Virus record (IMG/VR): IMGVR_UViG_3300050498_000085
Source of the DNA: a virus
DNA: 61,532 nt
Reading direction: 5' to 3' (one strand)
This document shows positions 10,204-47,153 of the stretch, one piece after another (the first letter of the stretch is position 1; every line of letters begins with the position of its first letter). A program made the position numbers and the translations under genes. A model generated the notes under the pieces. The model had not been told where the DNA came from, searched no databases, and worked only from the letters and a program-made list of their open reading frames with translations.

Positions 10204-10219
10204 CAAGGAAGTGTTACCG

Positions 10220-12086: not shown

Positions 12087-12087
12087 C

Positions 12088-12104: not shown

Positions 12105-12122
12105 CCGAAAAAGGAGGTACAG

Positions 12123-12592: not shown

Positions 12593-12638
12593 AGAGGCGC
12601 TCCGCGCCCGACGCGGAGCGGACGAGGGGAGCGGGACG

Positions 12639-12905: not shown

Positions 12906-12918
12906 GGGAGCCACCCCG

Positions 12919-13566: not shown

Positions 13567-13643
13567 CAGCTCAAGCGCCAGAGGCGCGCGTCCGCTAGCG
13601 TCGGGCGTGCGTCTCTGGCTCGCCGGCCGTCAAGGAGGAGACA

Positions 13644-14065: not shown

Positions 14066-14508
14066 TGAAGCTCACTCAGATCACGCCGGAGATCCGGAAG
14101 CGTGACAAGCTCGGCGCGGCCATCGAGTACGAGCTGGAGCTGGACCACTTAGGAGCCGCCGTAGGCAAACGGACGGCGAGCGTGTACCTCTCTGGCGCCC
14201 TCGCCGTCGACATCCACGACGTGACAGATCAGGCCGCATCGCGAGTGCGCGGGACCATGCTGGAGCAGCTCTGGGACGATCTCATGGCGACCTACGAGCG
14301 GCTGACCGGCGAGTACGGTGACATGGACCTACCGGACGAGGACGAGAGCGGACATCCCCACTCCTACCTGCTGTGGGGCGAAGCTCGCGGCCGAGCGCAG
14401 GGTCTCGCGTTCGCCATCGCCATTCTCGTCAACCCGCTCCATCCGGACATCGAGGCCGTCCGAGAGGAAGCCAACGAGCGCTGGAAGCAGATGCTATCTG
14501 CAAGTTAG
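14065..14508 (+). CDS. hypothetical protein, 147 aa
   Basis: ATG overlaps upstream TAA (TAATG); protein-like composition. Confidence 0.7.
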   Translation: MKLTQITPEIRKRDKLGAAIEYELELDHLGAAVGKRTASVYLSGALAVDIHDVTDQAASRVRGTMLEQLWDDLMATYERLTGEYGDMDLPDEDESGHPHSYLLWGEARGRAQGLAFAIAILVNPLHPDIEAVREEANERWKQMLSAS

Positions 14509-14554
14509 GCCGATCGGCGGTACCGTTGCAGACGAACTGGACATACGCTCGGGC
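14508..14554 (+). promoter_or_regulatory. early conserved box 3 (promoter-like), GGCCGATCGGCGGTACCGTTGCAGACGAACTGGACATACGCTCGGGC
   Basis: Shares CGGCGGTA...TTGCA...CTGG...TA(G/C)CG(T/C)TC with boxes 1 and 2; followed by perfect 9-bp hairpin 14548..14556/14560..14568. Confidence 0.4.
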
Positions 14555-14584
14555 AGTACCTGCCCGAGCGAGAAGGAGCCACCG

Positions 14585-14707
14585 ATGATCCGGATCCGCC
14601 GGAACGAGACCCGGAACCTGGACGGCCGCAAGGTCGTGCGCCTGTCGTCTCCGGTCGCGTCGTCGCGGCCGACCTTGCGAAGCGCTCGGACGCCGAGGCG
14701 CTGCTGA
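14585..14707 (+). CDS. possible very small basic protein, 40 aa
   Basis: GGAGCCACC 1 nt upstream of ATG, as for four other early genes; too short to judge composition. Confidence 0.35.
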   Translation: MIRIRRNETRNLDGRKVVRLSSPVASSRPTLRSARTPRRC

Positions 14708-14717
14708 GCGTGACCCG

Positions 14718-15140
14718 ATGAATGAGTCCCCTGCCTTCCGTGCTCTGATGGACCGATACTCGCGCGCCGTCCGCGAAGGCAAACCTCAGAAGGCCGCGCT
14801 GGTCGTGGCCGAAGCCGCCATCGGTCTCGCGAGCTTCGCGGAAGTCACCGAGTTCATGCGGCGAGTCCGTATCCGCTCTCGCGTCCAGGACCCCGAGATG
14901 CTGCCCGAGGACACCTACAGCCTGTCGACTCGCGTCGGCGCGGAGTCCACGGTGGAGATCGACCGGGCGCACCTCCTCGCGGACATCGAGACGGCTCGCG
15001 CGCAAGGCGAGTCGGTCTACATCGATTGGCCGTCCGTCACTTTCCACTGGGGCGTCATGGTGATCTACGTCATCGATGGCGTTCAGTACCGCGCCGTCTC
15101 TTCCGACTACCAGCTCAGCGAGACCTACCTGTCCTCCTGA
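14718..15140 (+). CDS. hypothetical protein, 140 aa
   Basis: ORF track; protein-like composition. Confidence 0.7.
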   Translation: MNESPAFRALMDRYSRAVREGKPQKAALVVAEAAIGLASFAEVTEFMRRVRIRSRVQDPEMLPEDTYSLSTRVGAESTVEIDRAHLLADIETARAQGESVYIDWPSVTFHWGVMVIYVIDGVQYRAVSSDYQLSETYLSS

Positions 15141-24661: not shown

Positions 24662-25237
24662 ATGCCGAAGGCACGATGGGCAGTCCCGTCCGAAGAGCCG
24701 GAGGACGTCGAGAGCTATGACGTCTATGACGGTGAGAAGCCGCCAGCCGGCGTGTACGCGGTCCGGCTGACCCGGCTCACCGTGAAGGCCAACAAGAACG
24801 ACGACCCGATGCTGAATGGCCTTCTGGTGGTCGCCGAGCCGAAGGGGAGCACCAAGTCCCAGTACAACGGCTACCCCATCTGGTTCAACCAGAACGTCAC
24901 CGAACAGGGCGCGCCGTACGTCAAGCAGTTCCTCGCTGCGCTCGGCATCACCTGGGCCGAGTTCCGGACCAAGACGGTGACCGAGGGCGACATGCCCGAG
25001 CGCAAGGGCGAGCCGGCGACCCGCATCATGAAGATCGGTTCCGTCAAGTTCAACGACGGGAACGAGCCGGCCCTGCGGGTCGCCACCAAGGAGGACAGCT
25101 ACAACAGCGCGCCGAAGCTCTCGGTGGTCCAGTTCATGAAGCCACGCGACCAAGCGAACGAGGAGGACGACGCGGACGAGTCCGGCGACTCGGACGACGA
25201 CGACAGCGCTACCCCGGGCGGCAAGGCGCCCTTCTAG
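24662..25237 (+). CDS. single-stranded DNA-binding protein, T7 gp2.5/DUF669-like
   Basis: Acidic tail ..EEDDADESGDSDDDDSATPGGKAPF with terminal Phe; position after the AAA_24 ATPase (recall of this module). Confidence 0.65.
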   Translation: MPKARWAVPSEEPEDVESYDVYDGEKPPAGVYAVRLTRLTVKANKNDDPMLNGLLVVAEPKGSTKSQYNGYPIWFNQNVTEQGAPYVKQFLAALGITWAEFRTKTVTEGDMPERKGEPATRIMKIGSVKFNDGNEPALRVATKEDSYNSAPKLSVVQFMKPRDQANEEDDADESGDSDDDDSATPGGKAPF

Positions 25238-25652: not shown

Positions 25653-25958
25653 ATGAATGCCTCACAGCAACGCTGGACCCGGATCGACCCGGACGACGGC
25701 ACCACCCGGCTCGGACCCTCGCCGTCGCAGAAGGAGTTGTGGGGGAATCTGATCACCGGCGACCCTGACCCGCACGGCTGGTACAACGGTTGGTGTCCCG
25801 TCATCGATCCGGGTGGCTCGGACCCGACCCGGCCGAGCGCTCAGTTCAACTTCCTGGCCGGAGCGTTCCGCTGCTTACACGAACCAAGGTGTCACGATCG
25901 ACGGTCGATCTCCCTGAACAACCTTCTGGTTCTGCTTTCCCGGACCAGGAGTGAGTGA
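25653..25958 (+). CDS. stand-alone degenerate primase-type zinc-finger paralog, 101 aa
   Basis: GWCPVIDPGGSDPTRPSAQFNFLAGAFRCLHEPRC aligns with GFCPRHEDPKTSGSPSASFNFNRDLWHCMGC of the next gene. Confidence 0.7.
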   Translation: MNASQQRWTRIDPDDGTTRLGPSPSQKELWGNLITGDPDPHGWYNGWCPVIDPGGSDPTRPSAQFNFLAGAFRCLHEPRCHDRRSISLNNLLVLLSRTRSE

Positions 25959-28803
25959 CGCGCTCGCCCTGCTGGACGAAGACGAACGCGAGTTCATCGG
26001 TCCGCTTCTGTCTGCGAGTCGGCCGGGCAAGGGTGGGGAATGGCGCGGATTCTGTCCGCGTCACGAGGACCCCAAGACATCGGGTAGTCCGAGCGCCTCA
26101 TTCAACTTTAACCGGGACCTTTGGCATTGCATGGGTTGTAATGAGGGTGGGAAGATTACCACTCTCATCGCCGAGCTTCGAAGTGATCGTGACCCGGACT
26201 CGGCCAATGTGGTCGACATCAAGTCCCGGCAGAGGAAGGCCCGTGCCACCCCGCTCCCAACCCGCAGCAACTTGGAGGGCTGGCACAATGTACTCATGGG
26301 CGATGACAAGCTGCGGAAGATGCTCATGGACCGGCGCGGCTTCACCCGGGAAACTCTGAAGCGTTGGCTCATCGGTTGGAGCGCGGCCGACTCGCGCTAC
26401 ACCATCCCTGTGTTCTCCCCGGACGGCGAGCTACTCGCCGTGAAGCTCTATTGGCCGAACGCCAAGGCGCCTTCCCCCAAAATGTACTTCTGGGGCGAGG
26501 ACAACGACACGACTCTGTTCAATGCGAGGGTGTTGAGCGAGGCAGACAATGTGGTTTATACCGAGGGTGAGTTAGACTGCATACTCCTTTGCCAGAAGGG
26601 CATCCCGGCCGTCACCTCTACCGGGGGCGCCAAGGGATTCCAACCAGACTGGGCGCGCTCGTTCGAGGGCAAGAACGTCTGGATCACGCCGGATGACGAC
26701 GCGACCGGCTCTGAGGGAGCGGTCCGGACCGCCGAGATGTTGGAGGGCATAGCGGCTTCGGTTCATATTGTCCAGCTTGACACCGGTATCAAGGGTGGGG
26801 ATGTCACCGACTACTTCATCAAGAATGAGGGGACAGTTGAGGAGTTCCGTCGGTTGCTGGATCGGGCCGAAGAGTTCACGGCCGTTCCTCCTCCCCGCGA
26901 ACCGCCTACAGAGGGACGACCAGTTTCCCTCGTCAAGTCGCAAGATCCGGCGCTGAACGGTGAGCCTGTAGAGGTCACGGTGATGGTATCTGGGAAGATC
27001 ACCCCGCCCATCATGGCCCCGAAGAAGTTGGAGGCGACTTGTGATCGAAAGAAAGGTGAAGTCTGTAAGTTCTGCGTGATGTACCGATTTGGTGGCGAGC
27101 GCGAGGTGGAGATACCGAGCGACGATCCAACCTTGTTGGCGTACAACGGCGCTAATGTCAATATGAGACAGGCGCTCATGGTCGAGGCGACCGGGGCGAA
27201 GTGCTCGACAAACATCAAGTTCGTTGTCAAGGAATCGACTGGATTGGAGGAGTTGATCGTCACTCAATCGGTTGGGCACCGTACCGAGGGAGCTGAGCAA
27301 CCGCTATCGCGCAAGGTGTTGAATGTTGGTACCTTCGAGACCGGAGTCAACTCCACAGTGAGGATCGTTGGGACGCAACGACCCGACCCGCGCGACTCAC
27401 GGGGCATCCTTCATGGTTGGAAGCTAACGCAAGTCGCCGTTGACATCGACACCTTCGTCCTGTCCGAAGAGGACCTGGACGAGTTGTCCATCTTCCAGAG
27501 GGAGTCACACCAGACGCCACTAGAGAAGTGTTTGGAGATCGCCGAGGACATGGCGGCCAACGTGACGGGTATCCGGGGCCGGCCATACCTCCATGTTGGG
27601 TATGATCTCGTCTGGCATTCTCTGCTTGGCTTTGAGATGTTGGGGAAGCCAGTGCCCAAAGGCTGGCTCGAAGCTCTCGTGATCGGCGACACCCGGACCG
27701 GCAAGAGTGACACAGCGCTCTACCTCTCACAGCACTACAACTCCGGGATCGTCAAGAGCTGCGAGGGCGCGACGTTCGCCGGCCTCGTGGGTGGAGCCAC
27801 TCAGACGCCGCAGGGGCGCGGGTGGATGATCACGTGGGGCACGATCCCGTTGCACGATCGACGGCTTGTGGTACTGGATGAGTTCTCTGGCATTAAGGAC
27901 AAGGACATCATCGAGCAGATGTCCTCCATTCGATCGAGCGGAGTGGCCAGTCTTCAGAAGATCATCAGCGAGGAGGCGTCAGCGCGGACTCGGTTGATCT
28001 GGATCTCCAATGACCCGGACGGGAAGCGGATGCCGGAGACGGACGGTATGGATGCTCTGCGCCGTCTCGTTCACCAGCCGGAGGACATTGCTCGCTTTGA
28101 CTTCGCAATGGCGTTGTCCAATGCCGAGGTTCCGTCCTCGCTCATCAACTCCAAGGTCGTGACCCATCCGGAGAATGCCACATATACCTCGGAGCTGTGT
28201 GCGAAGCTCGTGTTGTGGGCCTGGTCCCGCCGGAGCGACGCTGTGCGTTGGCACAAAGGGAGCGACGACGCGATCATCGCCGCAGCTGAGGCGATGGGAT
28301 CCAAATACGTCAGCACGCCACCTTTGGTGCAAGTAGAGAACATCCGTATGAAGTTGGCCCGGATCGCGGTAGCGCTCGCGGCTCGGACGTTCTCAACCGA
28401 CCGGACCGGGGAGCGCGTCGTGGTGCGACCGGAGCACGTCCGCTCGGCCGTCGACTTCCTGGACGCGCTGTATGGATCGGAAGTCTTCGGCTATCTTCGG
28501 CATTCGCGTCGTGTCCTCGCCGGCCGCGAGCAAGCGGCCCAAAACCATGATGCGGTGCTGGCGTACCTCCGCGAGAATGCCGGCGCCTTGGTCGCCCTGC
28601 GGACAGTCTCAGGCGATAAGTTCCGGCTCCGGGACTTCGAGGACTTCGGAGCTTTCGACCCGGACAGCGGAGTGGTAGATGCCCGGTCCCTCGTTCACTC
28701 CCTCCTGAAGTGGAAGATGATTCGGCGCTTGGAGCGCGGATACATCGCTATGGAACCGGAGCTGATCGCCATCCTCAAGGAGATGGAGGACGAAGGACTG
28801 TGA
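25951..28803 (+). CDS. bifunctional DNA primase (CHC2 Zn finger + TOPRIM) / MCM-like AAA+ helicase, 950 aa
   Basis: CPRH..HCMGC; TOPRIM VYTEGELDCILL..WITPDDDATG; OB/Zn region CDRKKGEVCKFC; AAA+ VIGDTRTGKS (Walker A), LVVLDEFSG (Walker B), DIARFDFAMAL (MCM SRFD-like Arg finger). Confidence 0.85.
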   Translation: MSDALALLDEDEREFIGPLLSASRPGKGGEWRGFCPRHEDPKTSGSPSASFNFNRDLWHCMGCNEGGKITTLIAELRSDRDPDSANVVDIKSRQRKARATPLPTRSNLEGWHNVLMGDDKLRKMLMDRRGFTRETLKRWLIGWSAADSRYTIPVFSPDGELLAVKLYWPNAKAPSPKMYFWGEDNDTTLFNARVLSEADNVVYTEGELDCILLCQKGIPAVTSTGGAKGFQPDWARSFEGKNVWITPDDDATGSEGAVRTAEMLEGIAASVHIVQLDTGIKGGDVTDYFIKNEGTVEEFRRLLDRAEEFTAVPPPREPPTEGRPVSLVKSQDPALNGEPVEVTVMVSGKITPPIMAPKKLEATCDRKKGEVCKFCVMYRFGGEREVEIPSDDPTLLAYNGANVNMRQALMVEATGAKCSTNIKFVVKESTGLEELIVTQSVGHRTEGAEQPLSRKVLNVGTFETGVNSTVRIVGTQRPDPRDSRGILHGWKLTQVAVDIDTFVLSEEDLDELSIFQRESHQTPLEKCLEIAEDMAANVTGIRGRPYLHVGYDLVWHSLLGFEMLGKPVPKGWLEALVIGDTRTGKSDTALYLSQHYNSGIVKSCEGATFAGLVGGATQTPQGRGWMITWGTIPLHDRRLVVLDEFSGIKDKDIIEQMSSIRSSGVASLQKIISEEASARTRLIWISNDPDGKRMPETDGMDALRRLVHQPEDIARFDFAMALSNAEVPSSLINSKVVTHPENATYTSELCAKLVLWAWSRRSDAVRWHKGSDDAIIAAAEAMGSKYVSTPPLVQVENIRMKLARIAVALAARTFSTDRTGERVVVRPEHVRSAVDFLDALYGSEVFGYLRHSRRVLAGREQAAQNHDAVLAYLRENAGALVALRTVSGDKFRLRDFEDFGAFDPDSGVVDARSLVHSLLKWKMIRRLERGYIAMEPELIAILKEMEDEGL

Positions 28804-29202: not shown

Positions 29203-30060
29203 GTGACATTCGTACCCGTCGAGGACGACATGCGGCAGCATGGCTCGCACACCAAGCCATTTCGGGTGGCTATCTTGGGTTGTGGCCCAGCCGGCTTAGT
29301 CGCAGCCCATGCGGTCAATACTTGCGGTGTACGGGAGTTCGGGATATTGTCTTATGCACGCCCCTCCCCTCTGTATGGCGCACAGTACCTTCATGCTCCG
29401 ATCCCAGGTGTCTACTTGCCCGAGCCGGTGATGATCCATTACCAGATGCGAGGAACTTCGGAGCGCTACCGGCATCGGGTCTATGGCCTGGACTGGGATG
29501 GTTCGGTCTCGGCGGACGAGCTGGAAGAGCACCACTACGGCTGGGACATCCGCTCGGCTTATCAGTCCCTTTGGGAGAGCTACTCGGACTACATCTCAGC
29601 CCGTGAGGTTCGGCCGAGGGACATTCAAGGGATATCTGATTCGGTCGATCTGGTAATCAACACCATCCCCCTCCCTCGGGTCTGCATGAAAGGTCATCAA
29701 TTCAAGGGCCAGAAGATATGGGCCGCCGGAGACGCGCCCGGTCTCGGTATCAAGATCCCCTACAGCTGCCCCGATGGCGTTATCTTCCTGAATGGTGAAC
29801 CGGAGGGCGACAGTCCGGCTTGGTACCGGCTCGCGAACATCTATGGCCACAAGACGATCGAGTGGCCGGGCCGGATACCGAAGCCACCGATCAAGAGTGT
29901 CGCTGAAGTCACAAAGCCGTTGGAGACAAATTGTGATTGCCATCCGGGAATGATGCGGGTTGGGCGCTTTGGTTCGTGGTCCAAGGGAGTACTGGTACAC
30001 CAGATCTTCGAGCAAGTGCGTACAAAGGTCCTAGCAATGCGAGAGGAATCGCCGGTATGA
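29203..30060 (+). CDS. FAD/NAD(P)-binding Rossmann-fold protein (oxidoreductase-like), 285 aa
   Basis: N-terminal dinucleotide-binding motif FRVAILGCGPAGLVAAHAV; later ..IWAAGDAPG.. Confidence 0.7.
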   Translation: MTFVPVEDDMRQHGSHTKPFRVAILGCGPAGLVAAHAVNTCGVREFGILSYARPSPLYGAQYLHAPIPGVYLPEPVMIHYQMRGTSERYRHRVYGLDWDGSVSADELEEHHYGWDIRSAYQSLWESYSDYISAREVRPRDIQGISDSVDLVINTIPLPRVCMKGHQFKGQKIWAAGDAPGLGIKIPYSCPDGVIFLNGEPEGDSPAWYRLANIYGHKTIEWPGRIPKPPIKSVAEVTKPLETNCDCHPGMMRVGRFGSWSKGVLVHQIFEQVRTKVLAMREESPV

Positions 30061-30389
30061 ACAGTCCTTGGCTAGTAGTGAGCATAGTGGTGTTCGCTTA
30101 TCCGGTAGCTCTCGTGCTACGGCGCTTGCTGGGATTCCTTTTGGCATCTGTAGACGAGAAGCGCGCTATGAGTCAGTTCCGGGAGTGCTACCGGGCGGCC
30201 AAGATTCTGGCGCTTCGGGAGTACCGGACCACCGGTGTCCTCATGACAGAGAACCAGATTGTGTCGGTGGCCATTCACAGTATGAGGTTGCGTGAAGATG
30301 TGAATGTCGGGAGACATCGCTTCGGCGAGAGCGCGACCAACATGATGGGTCGCATTCCGACCGACAACCGATTCCTCGTGGCGTCCTAG
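30057..30389 (+). CDS. membrane-anchored hypothetical protein, 110 aa
   Basis: ATGA overlap; N-terminal TM WLVVSIVVFAYPVALVL. Confidence 0.65.
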   Translation: MNSPWLVVSIVVFAYPVALVLRRLLGFLLASVDEKRAMSQFRECYRAAKILALREYRTTGVLMTENQIVSVAIHSMRLREDVNVGRHRFGESATNMMGRIPTDNRFLVAS

Positions 30390-30557
30390 ATGGCCAAGCT
30401 CGCCGAGTACCGAGGACGCTGCGGCGCATGCGGTGAAGACATCGAAGAGGGCGACCCCATAGTGCCCGATGAGGACTACGGCTGGGTTCACGAGGACTGC
30501 GCCGAAGATGACCCGACCGATTTCGAGGGGACAGTGTGGTACCGTGGCCGAGACTGA
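30390..30557 (+). CDS. small zinc-ribbon-like protein, 55 aa (below ORF-track cutoff)
   Basis: ATG directly after upstream TAG; MAKLAEYRGRCGACGEDIEEGDPIVPDEDYGWVHEDC..; translated by hand. Confidence 0.5.
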   Translation: MAKLAEYRGRCGACGEDIEEGDPIVPDEDYGWVHEDCAEDDPTDFEGTVWYRGRD

Positions 30558-30747
30558 GATTGAGGAGTACAAAGACTTCAGCGAATCCGAGTATGTCAAG
30601 TTGCTACTCGTCTTTGCCGTCGACTCAAATACGGCTCGCGAGTTCACGGTCACATCCTTCATCGAAGTCGAGATGTCCAGCTCATTCTTGCGGGCGATCA
30701 AGGCCGACCGTGTCCGCGTTCGGGAGTTCAAGGTGGTTGGCGAATGA
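30544..30747 (+). CDS. hypothetical protein, 67 aa (alternative start ATG 30508)
   Basis: GTG 30544 in frame of ORF-track 30469..30747. Confidence 0.5.
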   Translation: MAETEIEEYKDFSESEYVKLLLVFAVDSNTAREFTVTSFIEVEMSSSFLRAIKADRVRVREFKVVGE

Positions 30748-31379
30748 CCGGCCAACCCCGGCCAGTGGTTGCTCTCGACATCGATGGGACGTTGGGCGAC
30801 TATCACGGGCACTTCACGCGGTTCGCCGAGGCGTGGATTGGCCGGCCGATGCCCGACCCGAAGGAGATCAACCCGGGCCAGCCTCTGTACAAGCACTTGG
30901 GTATGAGCAAGGCTACATACCGTCGATGCAAGGTCGCCTACCGTAGCGGTGGTCTGAAGCGCTCCATGCCCGCCTACGAGGGCGCAGCCGACTTGGTGCA
31001 GTACCTCCGAGCCGAAGGGGCAGAGGTCTGGTTCACGACTACCCGTCCCTACCTCAAGTATGACGGTATCGACCCGGATACGCGACACTGGTTGCGACGG
31101 AATGGCATCTACAAGTACGACGGATTGATTTTCAGCTCAGACCGAAAGTATGTGGACCTCATTCGTGCTGTTGGGCGGGAACGTATCATCCTTGTTGTTG
31201 ACGACTTGCCGGAGCAGATCGAGGCTGCGAGGCGATTGAAGCTCGCGAAGCTCGTCATCAGGGATCAACCGTACAATCAGCACTATGAGACTCAGTGGCG
31301 GATTTGGGATGTGGATGCGATCCGCTACCACTTCAAGGATGCACAGTTCCGTTACCGGATAGGACTCCCACTGCTATGA
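30744..31379 (+). CDS. HAD-superfamily phosphatase, 5'(3')-deoxyribonucleotidase (NT5C)-like
   Basis: Motif I VVALDIDGTLGDY (DxDxT), motif IV-like IILVVDDLPE; ATGA overlap. Confidence 0.7.
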   Translation: MTGQPRPVVALDIDGTLGDYHGHFTRFAEAWIGRPMPDPKEINPGQPLYKHLGMSKATYRRCKVAYRSGGLKRSMPAYEGAADLVQYLRAEGAEVWFTTTRPYLKYDGIDPDTRHWLRRNGIYKYDGLIFSSDRKYVDLIRAVGRERIILVVDDLPEQIEAARRLKLAKLVIRDQPYNQHYETQWRIWDVDAIRYHFKDAQFRYRIGLPLL

Positions 31380-32275
31380 ACCAGATCGCCGGCTGGATCA
31401 CCGACTCGGTTGCTGACCCGGAGCCGGGTGACTTCCCACTCTCGCACTACCCAACCGATCAAGCTGAGGACATCATCGAGCGTCTCGTGCCGGAGTGGGC
31501 GCGGCTCTTCCTCGTGAAGAACAATGCATACGGGAGGGTCGACAATCATCTAGGTCCGGCCGGAGTCTTCCCGGACATCAACCGGAAGACCGGCCGGCTG
31601 GAGCGGGATCTGTGGGACAAAGAGCCGGTTGCGCCGGGTATGGAGCCGACTCGGCGCGTCATCCTCGATCTCATCGGGCATCTCTTCCTCGCGCTCCACA
31701 TGTTGGATGATGAGGAGTTGGCCGAGATGGCCACCAAGTACAGCCGAGGCGATGTCCATGATGCCGTGGCCGAAGAGATCGCCCTGGGGGAGACAACTCC
31801 AGACGATCTGGAGAGCGTCATGGAAGCTCTCCGGCGTGTCCTCGCCGGCTCCCCTATCACTCCAGAGCAGGGCGCGTCCATCAAGCGCTTCATCGCGGAG
31901 CGCCCGGACCCAGATCGTCCCGACACCGGGGTCAATTTGCCGGGCGGGATCTCTTATGCGGAGCACGGTATGCCCTCGCCGTCGACTCGGCATCTGTACG
32001 AAAAGCAGACTGTCATTCCCTTGCCGGACTTCTATCTTGGTGCCGACGGGATGGTGACACCGGTTTCGGACCGCGCTCTTGATCTTTGGCGTGGGACTAT
32101 CGCGGCTCAGTCGAAGTTGCCGGATGCTCCGACTTCAGACGGTTGGGATACTCTCCCAAAGCCGATCCAGGACATCATCCGGTTGCTCGCCGAGGGGTAC
32201 GAAGTCACAGCGGACACGGAGACGCGGAATGCGGCCTCGCAGTACCTCTCGGATGTAGGGCAGGATGGGCTCTAG
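31376..32275 (+). CDS. DUF1599-like all-alpha domain protein with C-terminal extension, 299 aa
   Basis: ..LFLVKNNAYGRVDNHLGPAGVFPDINRKTGRLERDLW..EPTRRVILDLIGHLFLALHML.. matches my recollection of the DUF1599 pattern; unverified. Confidence 0.65.
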   Translation: MNQIAGWITDSVADPEPGDFPLSHYPTDQAEDIIERLVPEWARLFLVKNNAYGRVDNHLGPAGVFPDINRKTGRLERDLWDKEPVAPGMEPTRRVILDLIGHLFLALHMLDDEELAEMATKYSRGDVHDAVAEEIALGETTPDDLESVMEALRRVLAGSPITPEQGASIKRFIAERPDPDRPDTGVNLPGGISYAEHGMPSPSTRHLYEKQTVIPLPDFYLGADGMVTPVSDRALDLWRGTIAAQSKLPDAPTSDGWDTLPKPIQDIIRLLAEGYEVTADTETRNAASQYLSDVGQDGL

Positions 32276-32873
32276 CGTGGACGCTCGCCGACTGTTAGAG
32301 GCGGTCTGGTCCGACTATGCACAGGACCCGGCATTCAACAGCTTACGGTCATGGATGGACCCGGAGGTGGGTACCGTCCGGTTTGTTCCGGGCGAGGGTT
32401 CAATGCGGCCATGGGTCACATTCATCGGCGAGGCTCCCGGCGCAGATGAGGACCGTATGGGCCGGCCGTTTGTTGGCCAGTCCGGGCAGCTCATCCGATC
32501 ACTCATAGCCGAAGAGTTGAAGCTGGACCCGGCCGACTGTTGGATCACGAATGTGGTCAAGTACCGGCCGCTCAACAACGCCACGCCGAACATTCGGGAT
32601 CAGATCAACTCCTGGCCCTACCTTCGGCGCGAGCTAGAGTGCCTGGCACCGCGCGCCAAGGTGGTCGTCCCACTCGGCGCAGTCGCCTGGTCGGTATTCG
32701 ATCCTTCCATGTCGATCTCTTCTGTGGAGGGGACTATGCGCATGGGCAAGAATGGTTGGTTGATAGTCCCGATGTTTCACCCAAGTTTTATCGGGAGGAA
32801 TCCCAAGCAGCGTCTCCCCCAATACCGCAAGCGCTTCGCGGTCATCCGCGAAGCCATCGACACACCTGAATAA
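32265..32873 (+). CDS. uracil-DNA glycosylase superfamily protein, family-4-like
   Basis: FIGEAPGADEDRMGRPFVGQSGQLI and ..VPMFHPSF.. motifs. Confidence 0.75.
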   Translation: MGSSVDARRLLEAVWSDYAQDPAFNSLRSWMDPEVGTVRFVPGEGSMRPWVTFIGEAPGADEDRMGRPFVGQSGQLIRSLIAEELKLDPADCWITNVVKYRPLNNATPNIRDQINSWPYLRRELECLAPRAKVVVPLGAVAWSVFDPSMSISSVEGTMRMGKNGWLIVPMFHPSFIGRNPKQRLPQYRKRFAVIREAIDTPE

Positions 32874-33113
32874 GTGCCTTGCGCGAAGGGGATGCGAGCT
32901 TGTAAGCCGAGCTGTCTCCATCGCGATATGGTCGCTGGCTACCGGGCGGCAAGAGCGAGCTACGTCGAGAATCGAGAAGCGGCCGGCCTCGGGTACGACA
33001 CCGAGACTCGTGAGTATGACGAATCCCATAACGGCGGAGTCACATTCAAGAATTGGTTGTGCTGGAACAAAGGGAGCGGCGATGAGGAGGGAGGTCAGTC
33101 GGTCTACTCGTAA
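32874..33113 (+). CDS. hypothetical Cys-containing protein, 79 aa
   Basis: GTG immediately after upstream TAA. Confidence 0.45.
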   Translation: MPCAKGMRACKPSCLHRDMVAGYRAARASYVENREAAGLGYDTETREYDESHNGGVTFKNWLCWNKGSGDEEGGQSVYS

Positions 33114-33453
33114 GGCGGCATTCCCAAGTCGTTGCCGCATTTGCGGAGATAGAAACTACAAAGGCGACGAGATCGGATTTTTGGAGGTACCGGATCTTGG
33201 TTGGAAGCCGATTTGTCTACGGTGTTGGTCGCGCGAGCATCCCGAACCAGAGCCAGAGAAACCGAAGACCAATAAGGATTACTTGGAGTGGAGCCGTAAA
33301 CAGCTAGCCAAGCTTGATTCCGAGACGGGTCAGAGATCTGACGACTGGAGAGAGAATGCAAGATTAGGGATACCGGCCTTGATTGATACATTCTCGGACT
33401 ACGAGGCGTATGTGAACTTCTTGCGGAAGAGATGGGAGAGCGGCAAGCGATGA
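33082..33453 (+). CDS. zinc-ribbon protein, 123 aa
   Basis: RBS AAGGGAG; CRICGD..(x20)..CLRCW. Confidence 0.6.
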   Translation: MRREVSRSTRKAAFPSRCRICGDRNYKGDEIGFLEVPDLGWKPICLRCWSREHPEPEPEKPKTNKDYLEWSRKQLAKLDSETGQRSDDWRENARLGIPALIDTFSDYEAYVNFLRKRWESGKR

Positions 33454-36400
33454 AGTACGTATCGCTACACCACCACTCGACCTTCAGCTACATGGATGGC
33501 TTCGGGACGCCGGAGCGACATGTGGAGCGAGCGGTGGAGTTGGGAATGTCGGCGCTCGCGTTGACCGAGCACGGCAACGTCTCGTCCCATGTCCAGCACG
33601 AGAAGTACGCGACCAAGGCCGGAATCCAGCCCATCTTCGGCTTGGAGGCTTACACCGCGCCCGACCTACAGACCCGGCGAAAGTGGCACCTCACGATCCT
33701 CGCGGAGACGGCCGAGGGTTACCGCAACCTGATGAAGCTCGTGACGCGCTCGTATGCCGAGGGTTTCTACCAATACCCAACCATCACCGGACCGATGTTG
33801 GCCGAGCACGCGGACGGCCTCATCGTCCTTTCGGGATGCGCCGACTCCAAGCTGGCTTGCGACCTGCTAGGCGGGAAGGGCGTGAACCCCCACCCTCCCG
33901 ACCTACCCGCAGCCGAGCGCACCGCCTCCGCGTTCAAGGCGTTGTTGGGTGACCGGTACTTCATCGAGGCCCAGCAATTCCCGGAGTTGGAGCGGACGCG
34001 CACCCTCAATCCGATCTTCGAGGACATCGCTCGCCGGTTGAAGATCCCGCTAGTGGCGACGGCCGACGTTCATTACCCGATGCCCGACGACAATGAGATG
34101 CAGGTGATTCTCCATGCGGCCGGCCGAGGGACAAACAACGTCGCCCAACAGGTTGAGTCCTGGGAATATGACATCCGCCTCACTCATCCTGCTTCTGATG
34201 CAGTCGTGTTGGAGCGGCTACGTGGCACTGGTCTTAGCCGTCGCGCTGCTGCTTTTGCGATTGCTTCGACAGAGGACATCGCCGCTCGCTGCCGCATCGA
34301 GCTACCCAAGGTCGACCGACTTCGGTATCCGCTCCCAGACGGTCAATCTTCACGAGACCTCATATGGTCTTGGCTCCGCGACGGCTGGAGCTATCGCACG
34401 CGCAGCAACCGCCGAATACAACAGCATGAAGCGGAGTATGTTGCGCGTCTGAAGTACGAGATGGACCTGATTACCGACAAGGATTTCATCGACTACTTCC
34501 TGATGTTGAGCGATGCGGTCCGCTGGGCGAAGGATCGCGGCATCCCGGTCGGGCCGGCTCGTGGCTCGGCTGCGGCCTCCCTCACCTGTTACCTCTTGCG
34601 GATCACCGAGGTTGATCCACTCCAATTCCCCATGATGTACTTCGAGCGTTTCATCGCTCACAACCGGACCGACGTCCCGGACATTGACCTGGACTTCTCG
34701 GATGAGCGCCGGGACGAGTTGCGGCAGTACTTGGTCGAGAAGTACGGTGCGGACCGCGTTGGCAACATCGGTACGTACACGAAGTACAAGGGCAAGAATG
34801 CGCTCATCGACGTCGCCCGGGTGAATGGGGTGCCGGACTACGAAATCAAGGTCATCAAGGATCTGATGATTGACCGAAGCTCCGGCGACGCGCGAGCTGA
34901 GGGCACGCTCGAAGACACCATCGCGATGTTCCCCCAAGCGCAAGCCGTCATGGAGAAGTTCCCAGAGCTATGGAAGGCTCTGCGGTTGGAGGGGAACTAT
35001 CGAGGCTCTAGCGTCCACGCCGCTGGGCTCGTAGTGGCCAACGAGCCGCTGACTGATGCGGTCGCAACATACGAGCGCACGAGCGGTACCGGCACCCACC
35101 GCGTGACACGTCAGGTGGTCTCGGCCGACAAGTACGATGCGGAGCACTTGGGCCTGATGAAGATCGACGCGCTTGGACTCTCGACAATGGGGATGATCCA
35201 GCACTCGCTCGACATCGTCGGGATGACCCTGGATGAGTTGTACACCGAGACGGCCGACCTGGACGACCAGACCATCATCCAAGCCTTCCGCGACGGCGAT
35301 GTAACGGGCATCTTCCAGTTCGGCGGAGGCGCGACCCGCATCGTCAACGCGGATGTCAAGCCAGATACATTCCTGGAGTTAGCCGACATCAACGCGCTCT
35401 CGCGCCCCGGACCGCTTCACTCTGGATCGACTCAGGACTACATCGACATCAAGCACGGCCGGAAGCGTCCGCCCACCCAGCACCCGGCCGTCGCGAAGAT
35501 CACATCCTGGACCAAGGGCCAGATCATCTATCAGGAGCAGATCCTGGCGGCAACGCTAGAGATCGGAGATATGGGATGGGTGCACGCCCAGGAGATTCGC
35601 AAGATTGTTTCGTTGAAACACGGCGTGGCCGCGTTCAATATGAAGTTCCCGATGTTCGCCGAGGGTGCTCGCCGGCTCCATGGGATGACGGAGGAGGAGG
35701 CATCCGACATCTGGCGCCGGATGGCGACGGCCGGGACCTACGCATTCAACATAGCGCACAGCGTGTCATACGCGATGCTGGCCTATTGGACGATGTGGTT
35801 CAAGGTTTATCACCCGGCAGCATTCTACGCAGCCTCACTACGTAAGTTTCCTGATGAGCAATATTGGCTATTGCGCGATGCCTTGCGGCACAGTATTGAC
35901 ATTCTCCCGCCCGATCCAAATCGCAGCCCGATCCACTGGGCGGTTGAGGGCACGTCCGTCCGAAGCGGACTGTTGACGCTCCCTGGGGTCGGTGAGGCGC
36001 TCGCAGCGGAGATCATCCGGGACCGGAAGGTGCGCGGGTCGTTCGACAATTGGGGGGAGTTGATACGAGTCAAGGGCATCGGGCCGGCGAAGCTCGCGCC
36101 GATTCTCGATCGCGCTGGCGATGACCCGTTCGGGATCTATGCAGTAGAGCGCAAGATCCAGACCGTTCGTGATTGGCTCCGCTCCAACCCGGGCATGCCC
36201 TACCCAACGCACAAGGGGACGGAGATCCCAACCGAGGGTGACCACGACATTGTGTTCCTCGGGTTACCGGTCAAGCGCGACTCTCGTGACGTCATCGAGG
36301 ATGAGCGCGGCCAGACCGGCGAGGACTATGAGACCATTCGCGGCCGGATGAAGGACCCGGACAAGATCAAGCGGATGATCGTGCACGTGGTCGACGACAC

Positions 36401-36578
36401 CGACACTACCGTGTACCTACGCTGGAACCGTTGGAACTTCGCTAAGGGCAATACTGAGCGAGCACTATGGGACATGAGGCTTGGAGAGGACCTGATACTG
36501 GTACGGGGTCGCAAGCGTTCCGGCTTCGGGACTTCCATACAGGTCAAGGACTTCTGGATCATCAATCCGGACGACTGA
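33450..36578 (+). CDS. dnaE: DNA polymerase III alpha subunit (DnaE-type) with N-terminal PHP domain, 1042 aa
   Basis: LHHHSTFSYMDG, LTEHGN, ATADVHYP (PHP); ..PVGPARGSAAASLTCYLLRITEVDP.., DIDLDF, ..HAAGLVV.. polymerase core. Confidence 0.95.
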   Translation: MKYVSLHHHSTFSYMDGFGTPERHVERAVELGMSALALTEHGNVSSHVQHEKYATKAGIQPIFGLEAYTAPDLQTRRKWHLTILAETAEGYRNLMKLVTRSYAEGFYQYPTITGPMLAEHADGLIVLSGCADSKLACDLLGGKGVNPHPPDLPAAERTASAFKALLGDRYFIEAQQFPELERTRTLNPIFEDIARRLKIPLVATADVHYPMPDDNEMQVILHAAGRGTNNVAQQVESWEYDIRLTHPASDAVVLERLRGTGLSRRAAAFAIASTEDIAARCRIELPKVDRLRYPLPDGQSSRDLIWSWLRDGWSYRTRSNRRIQQHEAEYVARLKYEMDLITDKDFIDYFLMLSDAVRWAKDRGIPVGPARGSAAASLTCYLLRITEVDPLQFPMMYFERFIAHNRTDVPDIDLDFSDERRDELRQYLVEKYGADRVGNIGTYTKYKGKNALIDVARVNGVPDYEIKVIKDLMIDRSSGDARAEGTLEDTIAMFPQAQAVMEKFPELWKALRLEGNYRGSSVHAAGLVVANEPLTDAVATYERTSGTGTHRVTRQVVSADKYDAEHLGLMKIDALGLSTMGMIQHSLDIVGMTLDELYTETADLDDQTIIQAFRDGDVTGIFQFGGGATRIVNADVKPDTFLELADINALSRPGPLHSGSTQDYIDIKHGRKRPPTQHPAVAKITSWTKGQIIYQEQILAATLEIGDMGWVHAQEIRKIVSLKHGVAAFNMKFPMFAEGARRLHGMTEEEASDIWRRMATAGTYAFNIAHSVSYAMLAYWTMWFKVYHPAAFYAASLRKFPDEQYWLLRDALRHSIDILPPDPNRSPIHWAVEGTSVRSGLLTLPGVGEALAAEIIRDRKVRGSFDNWGELIRVKGIGPAKLAPILDRAGDDPFGIYAVERKIQTVRDWLRSNPGMPYPTHKGTEIPTEGDHDIVFLGLPVKRDSRDVIEDERGQTGEDYETIRGRMKDPDKIKRMIVHVVDDTDTTVYLRWNRWNFAKGNTERALWDMRLGEDLILVRGRKRSGFGTSIQVKDFWIINPDD

Positions 36579-36586
36579 GGAGAGTT

Positions 36587-36982
36587 GTGATCATCCCCCG
36601 CTCTATAGCAGAAGAGATCCGCAAGCACTCTCTCGAAGCTGCGCCAGCCGAGGCGTGCGGGGTGCTGAGTGGGCCTACCCTGGTGTGTCACCCGGTGAAG
36701 AATCTCTCAACAGTTGAGGGGTACTTCGAGATGGACCCGGACGAGGAGTTGGAGGTGTTCATCTCTGCGGCCGAGCAAGGGCGAACCATTTGGGCCGTAT
36801 GGCACTCTCACCCGACTCAGCCCGCCATCCCGTCGCCGGCCGACATCGAAATGGCCCTGGATCGAGACATCATTTACCTCATATGCTCGCCAACTCGCGA
36901 AGGCAGCGGGCAACTACGAGCATGGAGGATCGTCGCTGGAGCTACCGCCGAAATCCCGGTGGAGATCAACGAGGAGGAATGA
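36587..36982 (+). CDS. JAB/MPN+ (JAMM) metalloprotease-domain protein, 131 aa
   Basis: EACG .. WHSHPTQPAIPSPADI (E..HxH..S..D); RBS GAGGAGAG. Confidence 0.8.
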   Translation: MIIPRSIAEEIRKHSLEAAPAEACGVLSGPTLVCHPVKNLSTVEGYFEMDPDEELEVFISAAEQGRTIWAVWHSHPTQPAIPSPADIEMALDRDIIYLICSPTREGSGQLRAWRIVAGATAEIPVEINEEE

Positions 36983-38667: not shown

Positions 38668-40194
38668 GTGCCTCTCCTGGAGCCGACCGGCCTACCGCAG
38701 TGGTACATCGACTGCTGTAACGAGATGAGTGCCCGCGCCAGCGCTCTGGTCTCTGAGGCCGACAACGCGTCCAACGTCCTCTTCGGACGGTCGCTGTACG
38801 GCGACCGGGTGTACGTCGGCTCGCGCGACGTGGATGACGACCGCGTCACGAACCTGCTGCGGGATGTCGCGTTCAACCGGCATTCGATGAACGACGGGCA
38901 GCACGTCTCGCCACTCGACAACGGCCGACTCCAGGTCGGGACGGATGGGATCATCGTCAAGCTGGTCCAGGGCCTCGATGAGGCCGCATTCAAGCGCACG
39001 CTGGACATGGCGACCCGCGCGACGATCGGGATGGACCTCTCGCAGCCGATCCCGGGCGACTGGGAGCCATGCCCCGAGTTCACCGCCGCGCGGGCGAGGC
39101 AGCTCGACTCGCCGGCCGATCCGTCCAACCGGGGTGACGTGATCGAGCTTCGCTGCGGCCATGCCAGTCACCGATCGACCACGATCAACCCAGGCTGGCA
39201 GGGCGAGGAGACCTCGGTGGGCCTCGCCCTGCTATGGGAGGGACAGGTGGCCGGGGGCGAGTGGGAGGAGATGCTGAAGGGCGGACTCCAGACCGCGCTG
39301 GAGTCGCAGGTGATCGTGTTTGCCGTCTCCGGCATCTCGCGTACGTGCACCCACCAGCTCGTGCGCTCCCGTCGGGCCGCCTTCCACCAGCAGTCGCAGC
39401 GCGCGAGTTTCTACGGTGTCGCGCCGGAAGTCCGGATGCCCGAATCGGTCTGGCTCAACCCGCGCGCTCGGCGGGCCGCACTGGACGCCTATGCTGCCGC
39501 ACAAGAGGCATACCGGATCATCTGCGAGGAGGACATCAGCTACCAGGACGCGCGATTCGTTCTCCCGGAAGGGACGACCAACTACATCCTCTGTGAGTAC
39601 AACGTCAAGGAGTTCCGCGATGTCTTCGCCTATCGCGGTTGCTCGATGTTCTCCTGGGAGATCGTCCATGTGATGCGGGAGATGCGGCGCCTCTTGGTCG
39701 AGGCCCATCCATTCCTCGCGGACTTGATCAAGATCAGCTGCGAGAAGACCAGCCGGGCAAAGGATCGCGACCCTGGATATGCGACGCTTCCGGGCGGGGA
39801 GGGCGCGGCCCACACATGTACCTTCCAGGGGTGGGAGCGCGTCGATGGGCAATGCGACTTCCCGTGGGCGCGCGACACCAACCGCACGTTCCGCTCGGCC
39901 ACGTACGAGATCGGGCGGAAGCCGGAGACCTACAGTCCGGCGGGACTCCTTTCGGATGCCGAGGCGAAAGAGCGAGCAGCTGAGCTTCTGAAGCGTCGTC
40001 GTCCCGGATCATCTCATCCCGCAGCCCAAGCCATCGCGAGGCACCCGGAGGAGGATGGGTTGGCCCACGAGTTGAGGGAGATGGCGCGTTCGGATGGAAC
40101 CATCGGCGCCGGAGACCCCGGGGAGCCACGCGTGCCCTCCACGGACTCCGAGGCTCGCCGGCCGGACCACTACCCGGGGCGAGGTGGGTGGTAG
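38668..40194 (+). CDS. divergent ThyX-like (flavin-dependent thymidylate synthase family) protein with N- and C-terminal extensions, 508 aa
   Basis: ..VSGISRTCTHQLVRSRRAAFHQQSQRASF.. against the canonical ThyX ..RHRxxSxxxxSxR signature; ..ARFVLPEGTTNYIL.. downstream block. Confidence 0.7.
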   Translation: MPLLEPTGLPQWYIDCCNEMSARASALVSEADNASNVLFGRSLYGDRVYVGSRDVDDDRVTNLLRDVAFNRHSMNDGQHVSPLDNGRLQVGTDGIIVKLVQGLDEAAFKRTLDMATRATIGMDLSQPIPGDWEPCPEFTAARARQLDSPADPSNRGDVIELRCGHASHRSTTINPGWQGEETSVGLALLWEGQVAGGEWEEMLKGGLQTALESQVIVFAVSGISRTCTHQLVRSRRAAFHQQSQRASFYGVAPEVRMPESVWLNPRARRAALDAYAAAQEAYRIICEEDISYQDARFVLPEGTTNYILCEYNVKEFRDVFAYRGCSMFSWEIVHVMREMRRLLVEAHPFLADLIKISCEKTSRAKDRDPGYATLPGGEGAAHTCTFQGWERVDGQCDFPWARDTNRTFRSATYEIGRKPETYSPAGLLSDAEAKERAAELLKRRRPGSSHPAAQAIARHPEEDGLAHELREMARSDGTIGAGDPGEPRVPSTDSEARRPDHYPGRGGW

Positions 40195-46522: not shown

Positions 46523-46744
46523 ATGGCATTCCAGGAAGTCGGCAAGCTGTTCCATTCCCAGGATGGGCTCTACTTCGGACGCACGGAGGACGGTTCGGTG
46601 TACGTCCGATGGAATAGCAATGAGACCACACTACCCGAGGCAAGCTGGGCGAGCGTTGTAGCCTCGGTATCGGCGCGCGGCGACAACTCGAAGACGTGGG
46701 CCGAGGCTTGCGACTTCCACAATGGTTTCGAGGATCATTCATGA
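46523..46744 (+). CDS. hypothetical protein, 73 aa
   Basis: ORF track. Confidence 0.65.
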   Translation: MAFQEVGKLFHSQDGLYFGRTEDGSVYVRWNSNETTLPEASWASVVASVSARGDNSKTWAEACDFHNGFEDHS

Positions 46745-46851
46745 GGTTCCCGCCCGATGGCATAGGCAAGGTCGACATCCTAGTGGTCCTGATAGGACTG
46801 TTGGCCTTGATCGCGATTATGGCCGTGCTCTTCACTCGGATTCCCGGATGA
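46741..46851 (+). CDS. very small membrane protein, 36 aa (below ORF-track cutoff)
   Basis: ATGA overlaps at both ends; VDILVVLIGLLALIAIMAVLF; translated by hand. Confidence 0.4.
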   Translation: MRFPPDGIGKVDILVVLIGLLALIAIMAVLFTRIPG

Positions 46852-47153
46852 CCGGGGCGCGGCTCGAAGCTCGGCTGACGGTATCGGGCAATCACTGCAC
46901 CGTTCACGGATACCACTGGCCTGAGCCGCTTCGGACCGTCAAACACCACATTCTTCCGGAGAGCGAGGGAGGGAAGGCGACCCCGGACAACCTTGTCCTG
47001 GTGTGCGATACCGGGCACTACAGTATTCACCACATCCTCGACATAGCGTTGGCGACCGGGAAGCTCCCCGCGCTCGGCACCCGCAAGGAGCGCGAGATCG
47101 CATCCGAGGGTTACCGGCGGATCAAGGCCAAGGCCAACAAAGCTCCGAAGTAG
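46848..47153 (+). CDS. HNH endonuclease, 101 aa (terminase-associated)
   Basis: ..VKHHILPESEGGKATPDNLVLVCDTGHYSIHH..; directly upstream of the large terminase. Confidence 0.85.
   Translation: MTGARLEARLTVSGNHCTVHGYHWPEPLRTVKHHILPESEGGKATPDNLVLVCDTGHYSIHHILDIALATGKLPALGTRKEREIASEGYRRIKAKANKAPK

Follow-up and report, generated by a model that had tools for sequence, protein, structure and literature searches.

Gene content of the locus

The stretch of DNA analysed here (IMG/VR virus record IMGVR_UViG_3300050498_000085; 61,532 nucleotides, hereafter called the window) is an actinophage-like genome of about 61.5 kb with a G+C content of about 62%. Between positions 29,203 and 32,873 lie four genes encoding a flavoprotein, a phosphatase of the HAD type, a helical protein and a uracil-DNA glycosylase (UDG); they are followed by the gene of a DnaE-type polymerase and, further downstream, by a divergent thyX-like gene. 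The set recurs across many phages. We tentatively view it, with a probability of about 0.45, as a replication-coupled unit for the management of thymidylate and uracil, in which the flavoprotein would be a partner of the ThyX-like enzyme and the DNA would contain ordinary thymine. The genes of this module, with its upstream edge, are listed below (aa, amino acids; FAD, flavin adenine dinucleotide; ORF, open reading frame).

25951..28803, + strand: primase/helicase, 950 aa; ORF with Toprim_2/MCM matches recorded in the source assembly
29203..30060, + strand: orphan FAD-type flavoprotein, 285 aa; phrog_8720; SEA-PHAGES label 'oxidoreductase'
30744..31379, + strand: HAD phosphatase of the NT5C (5'(3')-deoxyribonucleotidase) family, 211 aa; Pfam NT5C
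31376..32275, + strand: helical protein, 299 aa, with an N-terminal Nmad1/DUF1599-like domain; phrog_10271; sub-threshold PF07659 match of the consensus
32265..32873, + strand: family-4-like uracil-DNA glycosylase without Fe-S cluster ligands, 202 aa; Pfam UDG
33432..36578, + strand: DnaE-type DNA polymerase III alpha, 1048 aa; similar to the DnaE of Cluster D mycobacteriophages
38668..40194, + strand: divergent ThyX-like protein, 508 aa; Pfam Thy1; phrog_35637

The four + strand ORFs on which a first-pass annotation of the window had based a pyrimidine-pool or DNA-modification cluster are all present. Their position was also rightly described, dnaE starting downstream at 33432 and the divergent thyX-like gene at 38668, 5.8 kb past the UDG gene. 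The HAD and helical genes overlap (ATGA), the helical and UDG genes overlap by 11 nt, and a small ORF begins immediately behind the UDG stop codon; the four genes are most likely co-translated.

Conservation of the gene set

At the nucleotide level, none of 50,697 phage records matched the region, and all later comparisons were therefore made with proteins. Eighty viral contigs were fetched with the flavoprotein profile, and their ORFs were searched with iterated profiles of each window protein. In the 59 loci with 9 kb or more of sequence past the flavoprotein, DnaE is always found, 1-5 kb downstream of the latter. The helical domain is present in 57 of these loci, the HAD protein in 54 and the ThyX-like protein in 53 (in the remainder, it probably lies beyond the flank), while 20 of them encode a UDG. 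The order is nearly invariant: flavoprotein, HAD, helical protein, UDG where present, DnaE and ThyX-like protein. Such a recurrence in 59 independent viral loci is far beyond chance. The idea that these nucleotide-related genes form a unit is thus upheld, and this unit is conserved together with DnaE and the divergent ThyX across many phages. In most relatives, the module is bounded upstream by the primase/helicase; 24 of the 59 loci encode a homologue about 4 kb before the flavoprotein, and those of Wollypog and Krampus are annotated as 'DNA primase/helicase'.

Cultured phages carry the same genes. The flavoprotein occurs in 126 cultured-phage records, the helical domain in 110 and the HAD protein in 84, in the same host genera, namely Mycobacterium, Gordonia, Streptomyces, Microbacterium and Arthrobacter. 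Annotated carriers include the mycobacteriophages Prager and PBI1 (Cluster D), Wollypog (Arthrobacter), Wentworth (Streptomyces), Xenia2 (Gordonia DV) and Onyinye. The blocks of PBI1, Prager, Onyinye, Xenia2, Wentworth, Krampus and Wollypog show the same families in the same order as the window, with protein identities of 40-64%, and the annotated labels read, in order, 'oxidoreductase', '5' nucleotidase/phosphatase', hypothetical (the helical protein), DnaE and 'ThyX-like thymidylate synthase'. The window shares no nucleotide-level similarity with these blocks and adds a UDG, as do about one third of the metagenomic relatives. It also differs from Cluster D and DV phages by the lack of their methyltransferase and FabG-like short-chain dehydrogenase/reductase (SDR), and by the long N- and C-terminal extensions of its ThyX-like protein.

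Variations on this order delimit the core of the module. Krampus (Microbacterium Cluster EF) encodes the oxidoreductase, the ThyX-like protein, the helical protein and DnaE with 4-nt overlaps and has no HAD gene, and in Cluster EF phages the flavoprotein gene directly abuts the thyX-like gene. Three metagenomic loci (L039, L056 and L060) also have the thyX-like gene inside the block. Hence, the core association is that of flavoprotein, helical protein, ThyX-like protein and DnaE, to which the HAD protein is nearly always added, the UDG being optional.

Accessory genes are inserted in many relatives. An SDR reductase is encoded within the block in 37 of the 59 loci. When the 88 fetched loci and the window are counted together, the 89 sequences include 17 with DUF4406, 13 with a dCMP-deaminase-like gene and 10 with a small-molecule-type methyltransferase; MazG/PRA-PH genes are also inserted in some relatives. 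None of these accessory genes (SDR, DUF4406, dCMP-deaminase-like, methyltransferase, MazG/PRA-PH) was found in the window. UDG and SDR do not exclude each other, since both occur in 13 loci (Fisher p = 1).

The cluster is thus both genuine and conserved, and many public phage genomes carry annotations for its genes. These genes are listed in genome announcements and comparative-genomics papers, among which we found none that treats the function of the module or a modified base; likewise, our search of the literature on ThyX-like phage enzymes and on DUF1599/Nmad1 returned no functional study.

A flavoprotein family found essentially in phages

The flavoprotein has a dinucleotide-binding motif of the GxGxxG type (GCGPAG) near its N-terminus and belongs to phrog_8720 (E 5e-79). 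Neither the single sequence nor the family consensus reaches the cut-off of any Pfam family. In searches of Pfam, NCBIfam and Protein Data Bank (PDB) sequences, only the first ~30 residues, which hold the dinucleotide-binding motif, find matches, and no curated flavoenzyme family was recovered; the family profile run against PDB sequences also returned the generic motif only. An alignment-based AlphaFold model (pLDDT 93.2, pTM 0.89) has D-amino-acid oxidase (DAAO), UDP-galactopyranose mutase (UGM) and FAD enzymes of the TetX/p-hydroxybenzoate hydroxylase (PHBH) type as its top Foldseek matches (E 4e-8 to 1e-6), the resemblance being loose (TM 0.45-0.52). The first-pass annotation had seen a small GxGxxG flavoprotein here, and motif and modelled fold agree with it: the protein is predicted to be of the fold class of two-domain FAD flavoenzymes that includes DAAO, UGM and PHBH (GR2).

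Invariant positions of the family comprise G26, G28, P29 and G31, the GAQYLH and GRxGxWxKG motifs, C161, H165, C244 and C246, as well as a GDAP-like motif and several Arg, Lys and Tyr residues. The three cysteines and the histidine could possibly form a metal site. A relationship with the MnmC1-type FAD lyase gp47 of phage PaMx11 was considered and rejected: hhalign gave a probability of 27% over 32 columns, and BLASTP found no significant match.

The distribution of the family is narrow. A set of 5.8 billion proteins contains 352 relatives; those of their contigs that reach tens of kb are mostly 40-65 kb long, as are phage genomes. The flavoprotein is present in 193 viral contigs besides the cultured-phage records mentioned above, and among 185,579 bacterial and archaeal genomes (one per species) it was found only on a single 1.7-kb contig of a metagenome-assembled genome, possibly derived from a phage. 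The family is therefore essentially phage-only.

A ThyX variant that retains the dUMP-binding residues

The ThyX-like protein matches Pfam Thy1 (PF02511) with 96.6 bits and belongs to phrog_35637 (E 4e-110); its score against the TIGR02170 equivalog (72.7 bits) is below the cut-off of 87.9. The ThyX core spans approximately residues 185-365; the N-terminal extension before it has about 180 aa and the C-terminal one behind it about 140 aa. Cys and charged residues are abundant in the C-terminal part, and the length of relatives varies from about 300 to 669 aa.

We aligned the protein with 51 relatives, using the residue numbering of Mycobacterium tuberculosis ThyX. The dUMP-contacting residues R87, R95, R97, Q103, S105, R107, R172 and R199 are invariant in all 51, as is H91. 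Other positions have changed in the window protein: H69 is replaced by L, H75 by S, E92 by Q, H96 by S and Y108 by A. As a result, the RHRx7S signature of ThyX reads RSR instead of RHR, relatives having S, T or Q at that histidine, and the histidine of the GH motif (H69) is a Leu. The position of Y108 is occupied by Phe, Ala or Ser in the clade. The loss of these histidines suggests a change in the handling of flavin or NADPH. In a milder alternative to the thymine replacement discussed below, the module may encode a two-component thymidylate synthase, in which the flavoprotein would be the obligatory reductase of a ThyX unable to use NADPH by itself.

The HAD phosphatase: possible roles in the nucleotide pool, end repair or cofactor supply

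The HAD protein matches Pfam NT5C (PF06941) with 32.2 bits for a gathering score of 24.8, and the family consensus reaches 37.5 bits. Motifs I to IV are invariant in 34 homologues (D12-x-D14-G-T, T99/T100, K135 and D154), the motif sequences being DIDGT and VVDDLPE in the window protein. The protein is predicted to be a phosphatase of the 5'(3')-deoxyribonucleotidase type, in line with the earlier assignment. Structural counterparts are faint: the single sequence matches the deoxyribonucleotidase structure 2jao weakly (E 0.1), and the family profile found no deoxyribonucleotidase among PDB sequences, nor anything past generic motifs. With 57-64% identity to its homologues in the 84 cultured phages, this protein is the most conserved of the set, and public databases label these homologues as phosphatase, hydrolase, nucleotidase, polynucleotide kinase, pyrophosphohydrolase or exonuclease. 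The PF06941 family includes the dTMP phosphatase of PBS1, a phage with uracil-containing DNA (dU-DNA), whose activity was shown experimentally (PMC12697855).

Among PHROGs, phrog_415 'polynucleotide kinase' matches the HAD protein best (E 1e-21), and this is also the label chosen by some curators for its homologues. It could therefore be a polynucleotide 3'-phosphatase of the polynucleotide kinase/phosphatase (PNKP) type, which would act with the UDG and the replisome in base-excision or end-healing; the flavoprotein and the helical protein would then be replisome accessories and the link with the nucleotide pool would be incidental. Such a role is consistent with the location of the block among helicase, exonuclease, Sak4-like annealase and RuvC genes, with the long acidic tails of helical-domain relatives, which resemble protein-interaction tails, and with an hhalign probability of 78% (E 2e-5, motifs II-IV) between the HAD family and the HAD_PNKP family of Pbunavirus gp59. 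However, both the protein and its family consensus are above the gathering score of NT5C and neither matches PF25109 (the PNKP-type HAD family) even at E 10; the 86 residues between motifs I and II make a cap-sized insert, and no kinase domain is attached. Moreover, the UDG is found in one third of the loci and the HAD protein in nearly all of them, so the two are not an obligate pair, and several lineages have the thyX-like gene within the block. We consider a repair function to be rather improbable.

Another possibility concerns cofactors. Certain SDRs (FolM/PTR1 type) are pterin reductases, and HAD phosphatases take part in the riboflavin and folate pathways. With the SDR present in 37 of the 59 loci and the whole set tightly linked to the thyX-like gene, the flavoprotein and the HAD protein (and the SDR in relatives) might synthesise or regenerate a cofactor (folate, pterin or flavin) for the ThyX-like enzyme. 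However, no domain of pterin, folate or riboflavin biosynthesis was detected in any protein of the module, the sole family in which the HAD protein scores above threshold is that of the deoxynucleotidases, and the window has no SDR. Of all the explanations considered, cofactor supply seems to us the most improbable.

The helical protein and the uracil-DNA glycosylase

The helical protein, which belongs to phrog_10271, consists of a conserved N-terminal domain, about 95 residues long (approximately residues 25-115; window positions 31445-31723), and a poorly conserved C-terminal half. This domain has 1033 relatives among 1.84 billion representative proteins. The first-pass annotation likened the N-terminal half to DUF1599, an all-alpha family. 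When the protein and 40 relatives were compared directly with Pfam, no family was matched, DUF1599 included. By contrast, the consensus of the family has PF07659 (DUF1599) as its top Pfam match over model positions 1-58 of 61, with E 0.0047 and 17.7 bits, below the cut-off of 25. Since this top match is obtained with the consensus only and is sub-threshold, 'DUF1599-like' is a reasonable and fair label, and family membership is not established. The all-alpha nature fits: the AlphaFold2 model has three long helices over residues 25-123 (pLDDT >90), as expected for a small all-alpha domain. Pfam names PF07659 'Nucleotide modification associated domain 1', and Iyer et al. reportedly defined the Nmad domains in 2013.

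An enzymatic function was not apparent. The domain profile found nothing beyond generic motifs among PDB sequences. Comparison with the MazG/PRA-PH proteins of related loci by hhalign (probability <1%) led us to reject, on sequence grounds, a MazG/HisE-like NTP pyrophosphohydrolase, and the top Foldseek match of the model, the YpjD pyrophosphatase, is not significant (E 0.84). Furthermore, the family has no conserved acidic metal-binding set, E90 being the only acidic residue with at least 90% conservation. The longer relatives of the domain (the group of P0215, P0239, P0258, P0260, P0206 and P0269) have acidic low-complexity tails, which suggests that the helical protein is an adaptor rather than an enzyme. 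A recurring motif, (D/E)EFA(D/E)xDxxQHGVG, is found in these tails; several relatives resembling the window protein share instead a C-terminal GWDxLPxxIxxxLR motif. Both may be protein-interaction motifs.

The UDG matches the Pfam UDG family with 91.9 bits. It is close to the family-4 enzymes of PDB entries 1l9g, 1vk2 and 1ui0 (Thermotoga TM0511 and Thermus thermophilus UDGA; ~1e-25) and more distant from UdgX (~1e-7), and its score against TIGR00758 (109.5 bits) is under the trusted cut-off of 125.3. Motifs A (GEAPG, residues 55-59) and B (H172-P-S, residues 172-174) are kept in 28 phage homologues, and the uracil-recognition Asn (N96) is retained. The set of four 4Fe-4S cysteine ligands is absent from this UDG and from its phage relatives: with C92 and C126 as its only cysteines, the window protein has no 4Fe-4S site. 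The VKCRP motif reads VKYRP, Y100 taking the position of a cluster Cys, and this Tyr is conserved across the phage clade. Hence, as the first-pass annotation had recognised, the protein is family-4-like and clearly related to family-4 enzymes, with the difference that the Fe-S ligands are missing.

Is thymine replaced in the DNA?

The variant ThyX and the phosphatase also allow a quite different product to be envisaged. The divergent ThyX and the flavoprotein could make a 5-substituted dUMP (in which water, an amine or an amino acid has added to the exocyclic-methylene intermediate), the phosphatase would drain dTMP in the manner of PBS1 and the 5-hydroxymethyluracil phages, and DnaE would incorporate the analogue, thymine being partly or wholly replaced; the flavoprotein, with the SDR and the methyltransferase in relatives, would tailor the product. 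Several observations are consistent with this possibility. The HAD protein shares PF06941 with the proven dTMP phosphatase of PBS1 (PMC12697855), and the ThyX clade has lost two conserved histidines and kept the dUMP-binding residues. PolB, a neofunctionalised ThyX paralogue of polyoxin biosynthesis, indicates that the ThyX fold can acquire a new substrate or product (PMC5954106); it is an enzyme of cellular secondary metabolism, unlike the phage protein considered here. A small FAD enzyme, PaMx11 gp47, takes part in thymidine hypermodification (PMC8989533). In addition, the helical domain is nearest to 'Nucleotide modification associated domain 1', variable enzymes of the tailoring type (SDR, methyltransferase) lie within the block of relatives, and the phage-only flavoprotein shows a strict linkage to the set.

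The gene content of the window does not fit with the known routes to modified DNA. About 50 of its ORFs were compared with Pfam and/or PHROGs, and no dNMP kinase, dUTPase/dTTPase, dCTP/dCMP deaminase, 5-hydroxymethyldeoxyuridine (5-hmdU) DNA kinase (5-HMUDK), amino-acid:DNA transferase, glycosyltransferase or ThyA-type hydroxymethylase was found, although small or very divergent genes could escape such scans. Thus, none of the genes of the known thymidine hypermodification pathway (ThyA-type dUMP hydroxymethylase, 5-HMUDK and aGPT-Pplase) is among these ORFs, and the lack of a kinase for an unusual dNMP also speaks against an analogue.

The Bacillus phages with 5-hydroxymethyluracil (SPO1/SP8 type) encode a dUMP hydroxymethylase of the ThyA family together with dTMPase/dTTPase and dUTPase/dTTPase. 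The window resembles them by the pairing of an altered thymidylate-synthase homologue with a deoxynucleotide phosphatase. However, its homologue is of the ThyX family, not ThyA, and neither the pyrophosphatase nor the kinase was found.

A similar mismatch is seen with the dU-DNA of PBS1, whose pathway comprises Dcd and Dtm/Dtt. Dtm is a PF06941 enzyme that removes dTMP from the pool (PMC12697855), and the window HAD protein passes the gathering score of this family. In contrast, a ThyX homologue and a UDG are both encoded in the window and our scans detected no dCTP deaminase there, which is the opposite of what dU-DNA needs. We therefore rejected a dU-DNA system (Dcd, Dtm/Dtt and a UDG inhibitor), which the UDG with its intact family-4 motifs excludes.

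In Pseudomonas phage PaMx11, the cassette consists of the gp46 transferase, the gp47 FAD-dependent lyase, the gp48 acetyltransferase and the gp49 5-hmdU DNA kinase (PMC8989533). Like the window flavoprotein, gp47 is a small FAD enzyme (286 aa) of the DAO/MnmC1 fold class in the neighbourhood of a thymidylate synthase (PMC8989533). However, the two proteins match over the dinucleotide-binding GxGxxG motif only, and no transferase, kinase or acetyltransferase was found in the window.

A parallel outside actinophages is that of the Pbunaviruses (PB1/E217), which infect Proteobacteria. They carry a set resembling that of the window, namely the flavoprotein gp67, a ThyX and the HAD protein gp59 beside a DnaE-type polymerase; in Pseudomonas phage E217 (L095 in our data), the block has coordinates 6668-7669, 8881-9798, 9994-11010 and 11637-14747. 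Their ThyX deviates in ways like those of the window protein, with RTR for RHR, Q at M. tuberculosis E92 and A at Y108. The gene of gp67, a 333-aa GxGxxG flavoprotein, lies 1.2 kb upstream of thyX, and hhalign aligns gp67 with the window family at a probability of 76% (E 2e-5, 139 columns). Unlike the window protein, gp59 is a PNKP-type HAD (PF25109) fused to a C-terminal helical domain. The latter is similar by eye to the window helical domain, but hhalign does not support this relationship (probability 0.6%). The parallel between the two sets is suggestive. As the Pbunaviruses share the ThyX variant and our literature search turned up no report of modified DNA in them, they weigh against a non-canonical pyrimidine.

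The oligonucleotide composition of the window also bears on the question. All five of the hexamers with the strongest under-representation across the genome are 6-bp palindromes (z -9.1 to -4.6): GAGCTC (1 observed for 36.5 expected, z -9.1), CCGCGG (0 for 32.8), CTCGAG (0 for 21.2), GGATCC (6 for 23.9) and AGATCT (9 for 27.0). Similar avoidance is seen in 41 of 47 related loci, 18 of which avoid an A/T-containing palindrome. This is a strong restriction-avoidance signature, as expected for DNA that restriction enzymes can cut, and since four of the five avoided sites contain T, it argues against a global, restriction-blocking replacement of thymine; a modification that is partial or not protective would still be compatible with it. 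Furthermore, more than 120 cultured carriers have been sequenced and the papers that we found on the module do not discuss a modified base, which is weak evidence in the same direction. Overall, the replacement of thymine by a ThyX-derived pyrimidine appears unlikely. From the DNA-modification proposal of the first-pass annotation there remains the kinship of the HAD protein with the PBS1 dTMP phosphatase, whereas no non-canonical base was shown and no hypermodification enzyme was found.

A proposed module for thymidylate and uracil management

We favour, at a little less than even odds, a module that manages thymidylate and uracil during replication. The ThyX-like enzyme would bind dUMP, as its invariant dUMP contacts suggest, and perform folate- and flavin-dependent one-carbon chemistry, dTMP being the presumed product. 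The flavoprotein would work with it, most plausibly as a redox partner; this partnership is proposed because the two genes co-occur, and are directly adjacent in Cluster EF, and because this ThyX clade has lost the RHR and GH histidines. The HAD enzyme, judging from its family membership, would dephosphorylate a pyrimidine dNMP (dUMP and/or dTMP) and thus set pool levels. The UDG, whose motifs A and B are intact, would remove uracil incorporated by DnaE or arising from deamination. The helical protein would be a non-catalytic adaptor or regulator, since it lacks a conserved acidic metal-binding set and its relatives have variable acidic tails. The pyrimidine-related accessory genes of relatives (dCMP-deaminase-like, DUF4406 and MazG/PRA-PH) are in favour of this scheme.

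Several points weigh against it. The two most conserved parts, the flavoprotein and the helical protein, are those whose roles we can only infer, and plain dTMP supply requires neither a phage-only flavoprotein nor an Nmad1-like protein; it does not need either the SDR (37 of 59 loci) and the methyltransferase (10 of 89 sequences) of relatives. A GR2-type flavoprotein with a single dinucleotide domain does not have the usual fold of flavin reductases. Moreover, a thymidylate synthase beside a phosphatase of the dTMP/dUMP type looks futile unless their specificities are tuned. Finally, the Pfam family nearest to the helical domain is named for nucleotide modification, and the best PHROG of the HAD protein is a polynucleotide kinase/phosphatase cluster. 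The points that each explanation leaves unexplained led us to place thymidylate and uracil management first, a ThyX-based non-canonical pyrimidine second, repair or end-processing third and cofactor supply fourth. Ordinary nucleotide salvage alone, the fallback of the first-pass annotation, does not account for the strictly conserved phage-only flavoprotein and the helical protein.

Neighbouring genes and other observations

Three small ORFs accompany the module:

30057..30389, + strand: small ORF, 110 aa, with a hydrophobic N-terminus; gene call of the source assembly, in frame with ORF 29937-30389
30390..30557, + strand: small Cys-containing ORF, 55 aa; phrog_1581 (E 4e-11)
32874..33113, + strand: small ORF, 79 aa; phrog_7933; starts immediately 3' of the UDG stop codon

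CxxC-type cysteine pairs are found in two small ORFs that flank the block, the phrog_1581 ORF (30390-30557) and ORF 33010-33453 (+ strand). The latter, of 147 aa, lies just upstream of dnaE and has a weak double-zinc-ribbon match.

The window DnaE is 50.5% identical over its full length to that of Cluster D mycobacteriophages. It is encoded by a single ORF of 1048 aa, whereas Krampus, Wollypog, Onyinye and numerous IMG/VR loci have it divided between two ORFs (~300 aa and ~770 aa), which sometimes enclose an HNH endonuclease. ORF 36467-36982 (+ strand) encodes a Prok-JAB/MPN domain (69 bits in Pfam, 63 bits for the NCBIfam 'desampylase'). The match to Pfam begins at residue 45 (~36599), just after the dnaE stop at 36578, and a GTG is found at ~36587; none of the 88 related loci searched has a counterpart at the same position.

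Further away, ORF 24662-25237 (+ strand, 191 aa), downstream of the Sak4-like annealase, matches phrog_9460 'methyltransferase' (77 bits) and has no Pfam match; this label may be an artefact of PHROG annotation. Two HNH endonuclease ORFs are also present on the + strand, one among tail/lysis-region genes (12480-12905) and the other just upstream of the presumed terminase (46722-47153).

Implications

The association of a ThyX variant, a nearly phage-only flavoprotein and an Nmad1-like protein is distinct from the known nucleotide-pool modules of phages, and a near-invariant gene order is maintained in viral contigs numbering in the hundreds and in more than 120 cultured phages. Should the flavoprotein prove to be dedicated to ThyX, the module would represent a form of flavin-dependent thymidylate synthesis not described before; a product other than dTMP would make it the first case of DNA base replacement based on ThyX. 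Cultured and engineerable carriers, including phages of M. smegmatis, make the question directly testable. Even if the module turns out to be ordinary, the conflicting labels that these genes bear in public databases can be harmonised.

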